Below are positions 30,001 to 36,000 of a DNA stretch of 51,950 nucleotides, one piece after another. Origin of the DNA: a virus. Its lineage: Duplodnaviria > Heunggongvirae > Uroviricota > Caudoviricetes. Location of the stretch: IMG/VR virus record IMGVR_UViG_2909303794_000011, positions 1 through 51,950 of that record, one strand, 5' to 3'. How positions within the stretch are numbered: position 1 is the first letter of the stretch; the number at the start of each line of letters is the position of its first letter. The position numbers are program-made.

Positions 30001-33000
30001 GCAGTGAACTGCATATTGCCCCGTCAACGTATTACCACTGTCAGCAACAGCGACATCATCCTGATAAACGCAGTGCCCGTGCTCAGCGCGATGACTGGCT
30101 GAAGAGAGAGATACAGCGCGTATACGATGAAAATCATCAGGTGTACGGTGTGCGTAAAGTCTGGCGCCAGTTGTTACGCGAAGGTATCAGGGTGGCCAGA
30201 TGTACAGTGGCGCGCCTCATGGCGGTTATGGGACTTGCCGGTGTTCTCCGGGGTAAAAAGGTCCGTACTACCGTCAGCCGGAAAGCCGTTTCCGCAGGCG
30301 ACCGCGTAAACCGTCAGTTCGTGGCAGAACGTCCTGACCAGCTGTGGGTGGCTGATTTTACTTACGTCAGCACATGGCAGGGCTTCGTCTATGTGGCGTT
30401 CATCATTGATGTGTTTGCCGGATGTATCGTGGGGTGGCGAGTCTCATCGTCTATGGAAACGACATTCGTGCTGGATGCACTGGAGCAGGCGTTGTGGGCC
30501 CGTCGGCCGTCCGGCACAGTCCATCACAGTGATAAAGGTTCTCAGTATGTATCACTGGCCTATACGCAGCGGCTTAAGGAAGCCGGATTACTGGCATCAA
30601 CAGGGAGCACAGGCGACTCGTATGACAACGCGATGGCTGAGAGCATCAATGGTCTTTACAAAGCGGAGGTAATACACCGTAAGAGCTGGAAAAACCGTGC
30701 AGAAGTGGAACTGGCCACACTCACGTGGGTGGACTGGTATAACAATCGACGATTGCTGGGAAGGCTGGGCCATACTCCTCCGGCAGAAGCAGAAAAAGCT
30801 CATTATGCTTCCATCGGAAACAATGATCTGGCAGCCTGAGTTCACAGATAAAACACTCTCCAGGAAAATCGGGGCGGTTCAACCTCATAAAACTCCAGCG
30901 CGGCACCTTCAACACGGTCCAGCGAGATGTCCAGGTCAAAAATTTCACCGTCAAAGCGTTTTTTGTCCCTTAATGCTACAGTTACCGCAACTTTATTCTC
31001 AAAATTGCGGATCCCTTTCACAATCAGTTCATAGTTTTGAGTCATTGAATTACTCTCCCCGTGCAGCCTTACGCCTGTCTTCTTTAATCTTGAAATAAAG
31101 GTTTGTCAGGTACGTCAGCAAGCCAAACACCAGGCTACCCAATACACCTATTGCCACCCACTGGGATGGGGAGACTTTGTCCAGCAACTGCAGTAGCCAG
31201 TATCCCGTCCCCACCGCTGACGTGGTGTATGACACACCTGTTGTGATTTTTTCCATCTGGTACATACCCCGTCTCCCGTTATCCGGAAGCTGACAACAAT
31301 AAAAAAGCCACCAGTTAATTACTGATGGCTCTGATGCATAAACGTCATAATACCTGACCATTATGATTGACAATAATTATAATGTTTATATAGAAATATC
31401 CCCGATATGTGTTACATATCATTTCTCCACGGGGTATATCCCTACGCCAGCGTAATCTTCTCTTCTACTACACTGGCGTTTTTTTATTATGATGCCGCTG
31501 CATTTATCTCCAGCATCAGACTTTCTATCTCAACGCCATACGCTGCATTTTTTGTAACATCCGTCAGCGTCAGTGCATTCAGTCCCAGAGTCAGAGTGTC
31601 TTTTATAACCTGGAATGACGGGCCTTCCACTCCATTCAGTTTCGGAGTAACCGTGGCACTGCCGGCGGTGAACACCAGCTCCAGCGTCTGCCAGTCGTTA
31701 CCGTAGCTCCCGAATTCCCCCAGCTTCGTGTTTCCGGCTTTCCTGTGATGCATCAGATTCAGTCTGCCGTCAGTGGTCTGAGTGAAGTACGACATCAGGA
31801 ACGGATTACCGGTACCCGTCATCGCCACACCATCAGGAACGGGAGCATCCGTATACAGATAAATCCCCAGCCCGAACTGATTGTTGGTCAGTGCGCCTGA
31901 CAGGCGGAACTTACAGGTCAGTCTGCCGCCCTGTGTCAGCAGGGTAATTGCGTCATCCACCGGATGCGTCAGGGACCAGGTTTTATTGCTCTGCTTGGTG
32001 ATCTTAAATACACCATCTGACAACTGAATTCCGCCATCCTTAATGCTCCAGCCCTGCGCAGCAGCCTCTCCGGCTGCCGGCAGCAGGGAGATCGTGCGAA
32101 CGGACGTATCTACAGACGGACCCGATGGCGTGTCGCCGCCGGGCGAGGGTTTGATTTCCGGTGCCTTACCACTGATGAAGGCTGAGGTGCGACCGGCTGC
32201 GTCCAGAATAGCGGTTGCCAGACGATCCGGAATAATGCTCCTGCGCGCCCATGAACTGAAATGTGTCGGGCGGTTTGATGATACCTGGTTTCCATTCGTT
32301 CTCGATGCCGCACCGTAATATCCTGATGCCGGAATATCCGGATCTTCTGCCGGCGCGTTAGTGGCGGTATTGACGCCGTTACCGTCTGTCATGAAGGGCA
32401 CAAAATAAACGCCCTCACTCTCCCTGTTTTTATACCCGCCGTACACGGTGTCGTACTGGGTAGCGTATGTATTTTTCCAGTAATACGTCGTGTCACCACA
32501 AATCCACGGCACAGTTGCAGCACTGCCACCATGGCACTGCGCGTTAAACACGGAGAGGTCGGCACGAAACTGCTTCAGCATGGCTGTAAACAGCGCAGGT
32601 TGCTGTGCGTGGGTGGCGGCGCTCATGTCAAACTCACCCTGCATCCAGCAGACGGCCAGCAGAACGTTTTTGGGATTTTTCTGCAATGCCGCTTTTGTGC
32701 GGGAAATCAGATCCTGATATAACGGCTTACCCACACCCCAGCGTGCCGAATCCTGACTGGCCCCCGTGGACTCGCTGAATGCCCCCTCTGCGCCCTGGGT
32801 GAATGCCGAACCACCACGACAGCATGGTACCAGCAGGATCCCCGCGTTATTCGGGATATACGGAAGCAGTTTTTTGGCAATATGTAAGCCCTGTCCGACA
32901 CAGCCGTACTGCCCTTTGCTCAGGTCTGCCTTCGGATGATTCAGCGTACTCATATCCTGCACATCATGCAGGCAATGGTCAGCCGGGATGATGTCGTTAT

Positions 33001-36000
33001 ACGCACAACTCTCGCCACCCGGGGTTACCGTGCTGCGGCGTGCCAGTTGTTTAATGCGCGGATCCGGAGCATCGTAAGAATCCGGTAACGGAAGCCCTTC
33101 ACCGTAAGCCATGCCGTTGGACTGTCCGGCAAGCACAACCACGTAATACCAGTCCGGCTCAGATAAAGGACCTACCTGTGGCTCGCCTTCAATGGCCACC
33201 GCCTGCATAAGTGTGTACGGCGTAATGGCAACCGGTCCGCCGTATGGCTGCCAGCCCTCTTTCAGTTTGTGTGTCAGTTTTTCCGCCAGATCTGACGGCG
33301 AGGCTGCCCTGACCACATCATAACGTTTAATCGACATCGAATTTATCCTATGGTCACTGTAAAAACCAGTAGCCAGCACTGCCTGCGGAGGTGCCGTAGG
33401 CAATGCCCGTTGAAATTTTGTCCATGGATTTCATAACCCCACCTCGCAGATGCGGGTGCTGTGTAATGGAAATAAAAAGGCCACCTGACGTGGCCACCAG
33501 ATTATTTCCCCACCAGCTCGTTTATCTCTTTCACTGTCTGGTTAAACCGCTCTGACTCAAGCTCAACACCTAAGGCCCGACGCCCCAGCTCCATTGCTGC
33601 TTTTATTGTGGAACCGGATCCCATAAAAAAATCAGCAACCAGATCACCAGGTCGACTACTGGCATTGATTATTTGCCTGAGCATATCCGCCGGTTTCTCA
33701 CACGGATGTTTACCCGGGTAGAACTGAACGGGTTTATGCATCCAGACATCGGTATAAGGCACGGAGACTGATACGGAGAAATAGCGCCGGAGAGATTTAA
33801 ACTCATCCAGCAATTCAGAATATTTGCGATTCAGTGAATCATAAGATGCCACCAGCTGGTGGTGTGGTTGTTCCAGTTGTTCCTGAAACTTCTCTGCCGC
33901 TATACGGGAAAACAGTGCCTGTAACTTCCGATAGTCAGCCTCATTCGGCAACTGCCACTGACTGGCACCAAACCAGTGGGAAACCATATTTTTCTTACCT
34001 GTGGCTTCGGCAATTTGTTTTGCCGTTATACCCAGTTCGGCACGAGCATCCCTGAAATACGATATCAGCGGTGCCATTATGTGCTGTTTGAGTTCCCTTT
34101 CTTTTGCCGCATAGCCGTCACTTTTGCCGCGATATGGCCCCTGGTAATGTTCAGCAAACAGAACGCGCTCTGTGGCAGGAAAATATGCGCGCAGACTTTC
34201 TTTATTACACCCATTCCAACGTCCGGACGGCTTCGCCCAGATGATATGGTTAAGCACGTTGAAACGTGCACGCATCATGATCTCAATATCAGAAGCCAGG
34301 CGATGCCCACAGAACAGGTAAAGGCTTCCGGCAGGTTTTAACACCCGCCAGAACTGGGCCAGACAGTGGTCCAGCCACTTAAGGTAATCTTCGTCCCCTT
34401 TCCACTGATTGTCCCAGCCGTTGGGTTTCACCTTGAAGTAAGGCGGATCGGTAACAATCAGGTCAATGGAATCATCAGGCAGGGACTGAATAAAATGCAG
34501 GCAATCAGCGTTGATTAAATCAACACTGTTTATTTTTACAGTATTTTTCATGGATCAGTAAGCGTAACTCTGGTAGGCTCACTCTGCTTTTGCGCTAAAG
34601 CAGTGGGCCGTGGTTCGCTTGTGACCAGTAAGCATGAGCGAATGGCTGGCAGGTGCTACCAACACCCACCAGCCGCCCATTTTCACAGCAGGAAACCGCC
34701 ATTACTGGCAGCGTCTGAATTTATTCCCGTACCCGCCGTTATCCTTCGCCAGACCCGCCAGAACTAACTGAGTCAGTATTAACTGGCACCGGGCTTCGCT
34801 TACTCCGGTAGTTCTCGTCATCATGCGTGGCGTTACCCACTTGTCTGCAGGTAAGAAATGAAGGACTGCGGCGGCGGTTTCTGTCATATCTTGCTGTTTT
34901 AGCATGTCTTTTTCCCTTCTGGTTAACATGACATACCAATAACTCTTGTCTAAAAAGCCAGCAAGATAAAAAGTCAGTATTCACGACCACCAGCGTGTTT
35001 ACTGTACTGCACCAAGTTTACAGGTACAAAAAACCCGCTCAGTGGCGGGTTTTTGACATTTACCAACGGTAGACATACAAGGCCCATCGTTGAGAAAATC
35101 TTATCCATATTTTTTGAAAAATGCAAGCATCACGTCGACATCTTCGGCGAAAATTATCTATCTTGTCACTTTTCTTAATTGCGATTCAGCATACGCTTCT
35201 TCCTGCCAGCACTTTGTAACCAGTTTATTAATAACGTCTGCATATCCTTTGTACCACTGATAATCCGTCAGGTCCGGTACCAGTTTCTGGACATGATGCC
35301 GCGCCAGTGTGGTTGGTAAACGGCTAAACCGGTTTCCATTGCAACGCCCACAAATCTTATAAACAGGTGTGCCATGAAGCCGGGTCCTTTTTTCATCCAG
35401 GACAATACCTTTACCCTTACACCCTCTGCACGCTGTGCTGACTTCTCCCTTACCATGACAATGCTGACATAGTTCCTTCACCCACTCTTCCTTGATAACA
35501 GATTCCCCGCTTCTGGAGTGTTTCACCACCTCGCGCAATACATTATGAAATCCAGTACCAGCACAATGCTCACAGCGAGCCTTACTTGCCGCAGACCTGG
35601 AATAATCAGCAAAGGCAAAATTCACAAGGTAAGGAATGATCTGTAGCCGGGTTTCTTCACTCAATTTATTCAATGTCGGGTTATCCAGTGCCATCGCGTA
35701 ATTGAGCAGACCTTCAATCGCAAACTGAGGATCCTGAACACCAACTTTTGCCAGGAATAAGGCAAACCCAAGCGGTGCTTTCGACTGCACCATCCCCTGC
35801 GCAGCCATCACATCCGTAATTGTTAAACCACCCGAGCCTGTCGCCGGTACGTCATCGCTCAATTTTGGAGATTTTGGGGAGTAATATTTTGGTAAGGCTT
35901 CAAGGTTCATGCTCGTTCTCCACTTACGCCAGTACGCCAATTGCTAGCGCACGATCGATAAAACGAAATATCAGCTCCAGCTGAGAGCCATACTTCTCTT

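Follow-up and report, generated by a model that had tools for sequence, protein, structure and literature searches.

The window analysed here, a stretch of 51,950 nucleotides (nt), comprises positions 1 to 51,950 of the IMG/VR virus record IMGVR_UViG_2909303794_000011 (Caudoviricetes), and the analysis concerned its late region, in which the gene for the late antiterminator Q is followed by genes for an orphan DNA methyltransferase and a NanS-p-type sialate O-acetylesterase. An earlier reading made from the letters without database searches (the sequence-only reading) had described positions 31487 to 35157 as a late region, with Q, methyltransferase and esterase, resembling that of Shiga toxin (Stx) phages but lacking stx. 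The three genes are real, but the interval runs from the esterase stop codon to the base just before the Q stop codon, so that Q adjoins it from 35158 onward and does not lie inside it. Every late gene in the region is on the minus strand, and the order of transcription is RusA, KilA-N, DUF968/HNH, Q, a small gene, methyltransferase, esterase, S, ydfR (split by an insertion sequence, IS) and R. The features are as follows, with protein lengths in amino acids (aa).

37989 to 37750, minus strand: RusA, upstream of Q
37763 to 36921, minus strand: KilA-N protein, upstream of Q
36919 to 35924, minus strand: DUF968/HNH protein, directly before Q
35158 to 35910, minus strand: late antiterminator Q (YdfT/SfV-Q type), 250 aa (PF03589, E value 2.9e-53; phrog_127)
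35098 to 35126, minus strand: putative late promoter pR' (TTGCAT, 17 nt, TAAGAT), picked by hand from the sequence
35028 to 35054, minus strand: intrinsic terminator tR' (A5-CCCGC-cactga-GCGGG-T6), from sequence and fold
34702 to 34905, minus strand: 67-aa winged-helix protein (phrog_331, E value 4.6e-26)
33502 to 34551, minus strand: orphan beta-class N6-adenine DNA methyltransferase of the M.EcoGII family, 349 aa (PF01555, E value 5.8e-42)
33473 to 33495, minus strand: intrinsic terminator directly past the methyltransferase stop codon (scan; -12.2 kcal/mol, z -2.5, T-run)
33354 to 33434, minus strand: S', a 26-codon 5' remnant of a class II (S21-type) holin gene (PF04971 positions 1-22)
31487 to 33337, minus strand: nanS-p, sialate O-acetylesterase, 616 aa (PF08410, DUF1737; PF03629, SASA; PF20350, DUF6645)
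31296 to 31479, minus strand: spacer between nanS-p and S with two strong hairpins (folds with z -7.1 and z -4.95)
31050 to 31265, minus strand: intact class II holin S, 71 aa, with a dual start (MYQM) (PF04971, E value 2.7e-32)
29574 to 30881, plus strand: IS3-family element (IS1203/IS629-like), 1.3 kb, between S and R (rve, HTH_21, HTH_Tnp_1)
28512 to 29045, minus strand: lysozyme R, 177 aa (PF00959, E value 5.7e-25)

The spacer between Q and the methyltransferase gene measures 606 bp and holds a terminator and the small gene, and that between the methyltransferase gene and nanS-p measures 164 bp. The 67-aa open reading frame (ORF), the two intrinsic terminators, the holin remnant and the IS in ydfR had been overlooked in the sequence-only reading. 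The observation itself was confirmed to rest on gene-level homology and not on a chance-prone pattern; gene identities, motif integrity, collinearity, mosaic breakpoints and terminators were observed directly. The stretch from Q to the lysozyme gene is 99.98-100% identical in an independent NCBI assembly contig (L017), so the arrangement in the window is no assembly artefact.

The Q ORF extends over 35158-35940 (260 aa), and since positions 1-252 of the 253 in phrog_127 were aligned from residue 11, the likely start is at 35910, giving 250 aa. The protein is 98.8% identical to the Q of SfV and to that of Stx2c phages, and about 34% identical to the Q proteins of lambda and P22. A Q gene followed by a promoter with putative hexamers and by a nearby tR' is the arrangement of a Q-dependent late operon in lambdoid phages. 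The tR' hairpin and its T-run lie 104-130 nt past the Q stop codon and open the methyltransferase module that is shared with other phages; in five phages a mosaic breakpoint falls at the foot of this hairpin (35051/35052), and the homology of cdtI, P27, WGPS2 and PPyecE, which have other Q types, stops there. The 105 bp from Q to the hairpin (35053-35157) move with the Q allele, because homology to phages with another Q ends at the hairpin foot; this would be expected of a segment holding pR' and the Q-loading site, and the position of pR' and the dependence of late transcription on Q are predicted on these grounds. Ayreon and SfV have an annotated terminator at the site equivalent to tR', and the geometry of pR' and tR' in the window resembles the annotated promoter-to-terminator geometry of N15. 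The terminator past the methyltransferase gene likewise has annotated counterparts at the same place in SfV, Ayreon and N15, and the second of the hairpins between nanS-p and S (31332-31304 plus a T-run) is terminator-like by fold and scan.

The methyltransferase described in the sequence-only reading as an orphan amino-methyltransferase proved to be intact. PF01555 spans residues 29-340, and DPPY (residue 35) and FMGSG (residue 309) stand in the order of the beta class, with no truncation. The PADLOC model MTase_II matched with 502 bits; among PADLOC models and neighbouring genes only methyltransferase models were found, with no restriction or nuclease partner near the gene, whose neighbours are Q, the 67-aa winged-helix protein, the holin remnant and nanS-p. 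M.EcoGII, likewise borne by a prophage and with no nuclease partner, has these motifs at the same residues. Over its full length, including the central region, the enzyme is identical to M.EcoGII (349 aa) at 279 of 349 positions (80%; 90% similar, 3 gaps), and it is 89% identical to the reconstructed ancestor Anc291; the sequences of M.EcoGII and the ancestors were machine-read from the SUPREM supplement, so a few residues may be misread. Identity reaches 99.4% with the enzymes of cdtI and Ayreon and 97.7% with that of SfV. The family divides into two subclades, one uniting the window enzyme with those of SfV, cdtI, mEp460 and Ayreon (97-99%) and the other uniting M.EcoGII with the enzymes of Stx2 phages (87-94%). 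Compared with the 350-aa enzymes of cdtI, Ayreon and SfV, its relatives at 99% identity, the window enzyme (349 aa) lacks one codon, and pairwise alignment with M.EcoGII and Anc291 puts the gap in the central region, near residue 224 (AEKFQE-QLEQ).

M.EcoGII acts on adenines whatever their sequence context. Its expression is toxic, the lysogen keeps it silent, and its authors suggested that the launch of an infection by the prophage turns it on. In a recent review it appears beside Mu Mom among the protective modifications that temperate phages make upon induction. M.EcoGII and three reconstructed ancestors spanning the cluster were all active as methyltransferases; Anc291 was active on DNA and largely non-site-specific on RNA, and the RNA test was made for SUPREM (Anc284) as well. 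Methylation of adenine in any context has been demonstrated for M.EcoGII and the reconstructed ancestors only. Homologs were silent in the O104:H4 methylome, and no motif was reported in the methylomes of O111 Shiga-toxin-producing Escherichia coli. The position of the window gene downstream of Q and a terminator is consistent with silence in the lysogen and expression on induction from the putative promoter. The family is found at the head of late or lysis operons not just in lambdoid phages but also in N15-like phages and in a P2-like phage, a location that fits a late, pre-packaging function. Non-specific methylation with an anti-restriction benefit is predicted for the window enzyme; the suggestion in the sequence-only reading that the methyltransferase may act in anti-restriction is in line with how the literature views M.EcoGII enzymes.

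A different role, sequence-specific or regulatory, as an epigenetic regulator or for a packaging need like that of Dam in P1 and not for broad anti-restriction, was judged improbable. The family does show ordinary Type II beta-class architecture, about 20% of the residues are unlike M.EcoGII with a concentration in the centre, regulatory or packaging roles are on record for other orphan phage methyltransferases, and the conserved winged-helix gene directly upstream could confer targeting. The activity of M.EcoGII and all three ancestors argues the other way, as do the RNA tests of non-site-specificity made for SUPREM and for Anc291, the latter 89% identical to the window enzyme; moreover, a gene behind tR' is not expected to be expressed in the lysogen, and the homologs were silent in the O104:H4 and O111 methylomes.

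The NanS-p-like esterase was also borne out, by its DUF1737, SASA and DUF6645 domains and by matches to two solved structures. It has the three-domain plan of a capsid-binding DUF1737, a SASA/SGNH catalytic domain and a lectin-like C-terminal domain; the catalytic domain matches NanS (3pt5) with an E value of 3.6e-121 and the C-terminal domain matches NanS-p (6yp6) with an E value of 3.9e-31. The catalytic serine (GQSN block, AGQSNGMAYGEG) and histidine (RPTHFSS) line up with the corresponding blocks of 3pt5, and activity on sialic acids is predicted from them. A 638-aa ORF with a TTG start (31487-33403) was dismissed as a product of mechanical ORF calling; translation from the ATG at 33337, which is served by an AGGA ribosome-binding site, yields 616 aa, the length also annotated for the nanS-p-type gene of phage 434. 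The gene lies directly upstream of S, its stop codon at 31487 and the S start at 31265. The nanS-p module (31473-33348) is 95.4% identical at the nucleotide level to phage 434 and 92.9% to Stx1a phages, while the catalytic part of the Stx2c phage gene is just 69% identical to that of the window. The module fits the gene unusually closely, reaching 11 bp beyond it upstream and 14 bp downstream. The catalytic residues, the NanS-p domain plan and the place before the holin are shared with 933W L0105, phi24B gp84 and chromosomal NanS/YjhS.

According to a 2026 preprint, the phi24B homolog gp84 is processed and its DUF1737 decorates the capsid of a T=9 podovirus. NanS-p might accordingly be mainly a structural protein of the virion, attached to the capsid through DUF1737, and not a nutritional enzyme for the host population; gp84 is such a decoration protein, nanS-p stands in the late operon beside lysis and morphogenesis genes, and its DUF1737 is intact. 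This was considered unlikely, though the least so of the alternatives weighed here: the window capsid is of the lambda/21 type and not that of a T=9 podovirus, the catalytic domain shows full conservation relative to NanS, whose enzymatic activity is known, and structural and enzymatic roles are compatible and not mutually exclusive.

The absence of toxin and transfer RNA (tRNA) genes reported in the sequence-only reading held in every search. ARAGORN found no tRNA in the whole window and Rfam none either, its only matches in the window (ALIL, C4 and isrK) all lying outside the interval. The A and B subunits of Stx1, Stx2 and Stx2e (six queries, tblastn against the window) gave a best E value of 0.058, and blastn of the tRNA-stx intervals of three Stx phages against the window returned nothing. 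No stxA or stxB follows Q, and the gap between the methyltransferase gene and nanS-p, just 164 bp, holds only the terminator and the holin remnant. The tRNA genes ileZ, argN and argO, which precede stx in a typical though not strictly defining arrangement of Stx2 phages, are absent too.

In gene order the likeness to Stx phages was upheld. The window and O157 Stx2c phages are collinear all the way from the replication genes to R, with nucleotide identities of 89.5% over the methyltransferase module, 87% over S, 84% over R and 84-87% over S/ydfR/R; these phages carry two tRNA genes and stx2cAB precisely between the methyltransferase gene and nanS-p, and the window lacks them. Stx2a_WGPS2, the Stx2e phage P27 and 1720a-02 share the window's gene order, namely Q, small ORF, methyltransferase, slot, nanS-p, S, ydfR and R, and in Stx2 phages a gene of the M.EcoGII subclade lies between Q with the small ORF and tRNA-stx. 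Alignment of the Q-to-S interval with Stx phages, the check named beforehand, therefore found similarity; compared with these phages, the window has a virion module of the lambda/21 type. The Q-to-S region of Stx phages has been described (PMC10462455), and a survey of Stx2a phages placed methylase genes after Q and nanS-p after stx, with nanS-p also present in non-Stx prophages. The methyltransferase and the esterase had been described as occupying the toxin insertion region; both are present, but as the normal flanks of the toxin slot and not as its contents.

Most modules have their nearest relatives among non-Stx phages: SfV, cdtI, mEp460 and Ayreon (97-99%) from Q to the methyltransferase, and phage 434 (95%) for nanS-p. 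From tR' to the holin start (33356-35052) the window is 98.5% identical to Ayreon and 98.1% to cdtI, and Ayreon is 96.7% identical from Q to RusA (35028-38153). SfV, Ayreon and cdtI share the layout Q, terminator, small ORF, methyltransferase, terminator, S, with an extra 650 bp between tR' and the small ORF in Ayreon and a different Q plus two reverse-strand genes in cdtI; the corresponding layout ending in a holin recurs in N15 and in Morganella and Kosakonia phages. Among the complete genomes examined, non-Stx E. coli prophages had the order Q, small ORF, methyltransferase, tRNA, TerB, DUF3927, nanS-p, S. The architecture is generic for lambdoid phages and not specific to Stx phages.

The holin remnant S' bears most directly on the history of the slot. 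It begins with a ribosome-binding site and the dual start ATG-AAA-TCC-ATG, followed by 22 codons and TGA (MKSMDK...YWFLQ*), and is 87-88% identical to the holins of cdtI and Ayreon and 58% identical to the resident S. SfV, mEp460, Ayreon and cdtI have a full holin gene at this place, followed by R and Rz; in the window the holin is cut past codon 26 and is followed by nanS-p and a different S/ydfR/R. The homology with cdtI and Ayreon stops at 33356 and that with phage 434 takes over at 33348, 11 bp before the nanS-p start, with a few bases of microhomology at most. S' is read as a recombination scar. The exact methyltransferase-S'-nanS-p junction was found in none of 5,426 complete E. coli genomes and 50,697 phage records; an exact-protein look-up located it in one NCBI assembly contig, L017, and its presence in an independent contig shows the junction to be genuine. 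The fragment encodes roughly the first transmembrane (signal-anchor-release, SAR) segment of an S21-type pinholin, and a weaker possibility is that it could be translated and delay lysis in trans.

In the window as a whole, 48% matches phage cdtI at 94-98% identity and 13157-33355 is unmatched, the head and tail genes of that part being 96% identical to lambda and phage 21 types. cdtI, an inducible prophage of enteropathogenic E. coli (EPEC; NC_009514) that carries cytolethal distending toxin type I (CDT-I) and Cif, matches in cdtABC, cif, nleH, the tail fibres, the methyltransferase module, the nin region, the replication genes and the integrase; relative to it, Q, the lysis genes, nanS-p, the head and tail-shaft genes, the immunity region and the integrase-adjacent cargo have been replaced in the window. 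Mosaic breakpoints near the interval lie at 35052, 33356/33348 and 31473. By the simplest history, a cdtI-like ancestor with Q, small ORF, methyltransferase, S, R and Rz recombined with other lambdoid phages by one illegitimate crossover inside S and another in the tail genes, an exchange that would have brought in nanS-p, the new S/ydfR/R lysis cassette and the lambda/21-type head and tail genes; Q would have been swapped in a separate exchange. As the holin scar marks the joining of modules within the slot, it indicates that stx was probably never present there, and so was not lost.

The converse history, a decayed Stx prophage whose ancestral tRNA-stxAB between the methyltransferase gene and nanS-p was deleted, was regarded as highly improbable, the least credible of the alternatives. 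It would account for the collinearity with Stx2c phages, which have a 98.8% identical Q and their cassette precisely at the empty position, and for the 93% identity of nanS-p to genes of Stx1a phages. However, no trace of stx, tRNA or their spacers remains, and the 5' end of the holin in the slot lies past the methyltransferase terminator as in the stx-less phages cdtI, mEp460, Ayreon and SfV and is of their allele. The methyltransferase, too, belongs to the SfV/cdtI subclade (97-99%) and not to that of Stx phages (80-85%), nanS-p is nearer to phage 434 (95.4%) than to any Stx phage, and among the same 5,426 E. coli genomes and 50,697 phage records no relative more than 98% identical across 33300-35100 carried stx between the methyltransferase gene and S'.

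Downstream of the interval the lysis genes are interrupted by the IS, which splits ydfR (DUF1327) into 30882-31045 and 29389-29573 and is oriented opposite to the late operon. It is 95% identical, with one indel, to an annotated IS3-family element; its ALIL pseudoknot lies at 29907-30023 (Rfam), and its orfA frame stops at codon 72, ahead of the ALIL frameshift site. Contig L017 has the empty site and an intact ydfR of 114 aa, and since that contig is otherwise identical the insertion is recent. R is predicted from its hydrophobic N-terminus to be a SAR endolysin, and the late operon runs on from it.

Taken together, the region very probably forms the promoter-proximal section of a late operon, that of a lambda/21-like prophage carrying CDT-I, Cif and NleH, with a methyltransferase predicted to be late-expressed and protective and an esterase on either side of a slot free of stx. 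After induction, Q would modify RNA polymerase at pR', and the polymerase would pass tR', the terminator behind the methyltransferase gene and the nanS-p hairpins to reach S, R and the morphogenesis genes. The methyltransferase, made only late and as the first sizeable product, would methylate adenines of the phage DNA as it replicates, largely or wholly regardless of sequence, and packaged genomes would reach the next host already protected from many restriction systems sensitive to adenine methylation; in the lysogen, tR' would keep the gene silent and so avoid toxicity. NanS-p, also made late, would be freed at lysis or carried on the capsid through DUF1737, and would strip 9-O-acetyl groups from mucus sialic acids.

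Several points weigh against this reading. The pR' candidate agrees with the consensus at 7 of 12 positions and scores under the scan threshold, and a promoter scan of the minus strand between Q and the methyltransferase gene gave no sigma-70 site above threshold. Late expression and methylating activity of the window allele are predictions; it departs from M.EcoGII at about 20% of positions (some 70 residues), many of these within the central target-recognition region, and it has one codon fewer than its closest relatives, so its specificity may be altered with respect to M.EcoGII. The capsid role of DUF1737 comes from a T=9 podovirus and not from a lambda-type head. Insertion of the IS between S and R might hamper late transcription or lysis, in which case the prophage may no longer run through a full cycle in which the methyltransferase would count.

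The 67-aa ORF has a good Shine-Dalgarno sequence and directly precedes the methyltransferase gene, as it does in every relative examined (SfV, cdtI, P27, WGPS2, PPyecE, and Morganella and Kosakonia prophages). The pair was found behind at least four Q families and ahead of several holin types in phages of Escherichia, Shigella, Morganella and Kosakonia. The motifs MLKQQDMT and RCQLILTQ were invariant in alignments of the small protein (28 sequences in alignment A3). Nothing was found for the ORF in Pfam, NCBIfam or PADLOC. An alignment-based AlphaFold2 (AF2) model, with a predicted local distance difference test score (pLDDT) of 87.9, is a winged helix of H-H-H-beta-beta topology; a single-sequence AF2 model (pLDDT 57) was uninformative. 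Foldseek matches were generic winged helices, all with E values of at least 3.9e-3, and a likeness to Z-alpha (template-modelling score, TM, 0.84) was not treated as meaningful. A homolog was also seen at positions 3501-3692 of L019, and in a Salmonella prophage (L020, 3501-3704) the small gene is intact and the methyltransferase gene is split into ORFs of 69 and 259 aa. The protein might be a partner of the methyltransferase that restrains, times or directs the toxic enzyme or binds hypermethylated DNA, a proposal to which little probability was assigned.

The recognised cargo of the prophage lies elsewhere in the window, as follows.

1 to 573, minus strand: cdtC, with a CDtoxinA domain
570 to 1391, minus strand: cdtB, with an Exo_endo_phos domain
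1388 to 2101, minus strand: cdtA, with a CDtoxinA domain
3333 to 4184, minus strand: Cif, a type III effector, beyond the tail-fibre genes
4408 to 5298, minus strand: NleH, a type III effector, beyond the tail-fibre genes
46717 to 50544, minus strand: DSR1 defence protein with a SIR2 domain, 1275 aa (PADLOC Dsr1 model end to end, 2731 bits)

Domains found in positions 1-2101 were CDtoxinA, Exo_endo_phos and CDtoxinA. Positions 1-3300 are 100% identical to E. coli DCE7, where cdtCBA is annotated, and positions 1-7750 are 98.1% identical to phage cdtI. With cdtA, cdtB and cdtC placed beyond the tail fibres, as in a CDT-I converting phage, the window is a toxin-converting prophage for CDT-I and not for Stx. 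Next to the integrase, the DCE7 prophage has a CHAT-domain protein, cdtI has orf33 (annotated as hypothetical) and the window has DSR1; the site looks like a swappable position for defence cargo.

In the nin region, a 164-aa ORF (38462-38956, minus strand) matched Pfam PerC and has a counterpart at 382-876 of contig L017; the PerC family includes transcriptional activators of EPEC virulence genes, and at this place cdtI carries a 'dam' gene (orf47, annotated as PAPS reductase). A C4 antisense RNA (68 bits) and the Hfq-binding small RNA isrK (60 bits) were found by Rfam side by side at 40589-40777 (minus strand) in the early region, inside or beside a 382-aa ORF at 39989-41137.

The region is an ordinary start of a lambdoid late operon, its arrangement well documented and each of its components already known. 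The methyltransferase should be labelled as M.EcoGII-family and probably non-specific, and not as a generic site-specific DNA methyltransferase, and no motif from this enzyme is to be expected in the methylome of a lysogen. The small winged-helix gene is the sole part of the interval not tied to a described function, and poses the only biological question that the region raises. The prophage should be classed as a lambdoid carrying CDT-I, Cif and NleH and not as a stx-negative derivative of a Stx phage. In the holin remnant, the shuffling of cargo-flanking modules among lambdoid phages is cleanly illustrated, and it shows that a toxin slot can arise by the joining of modules without ever having held a toxin.

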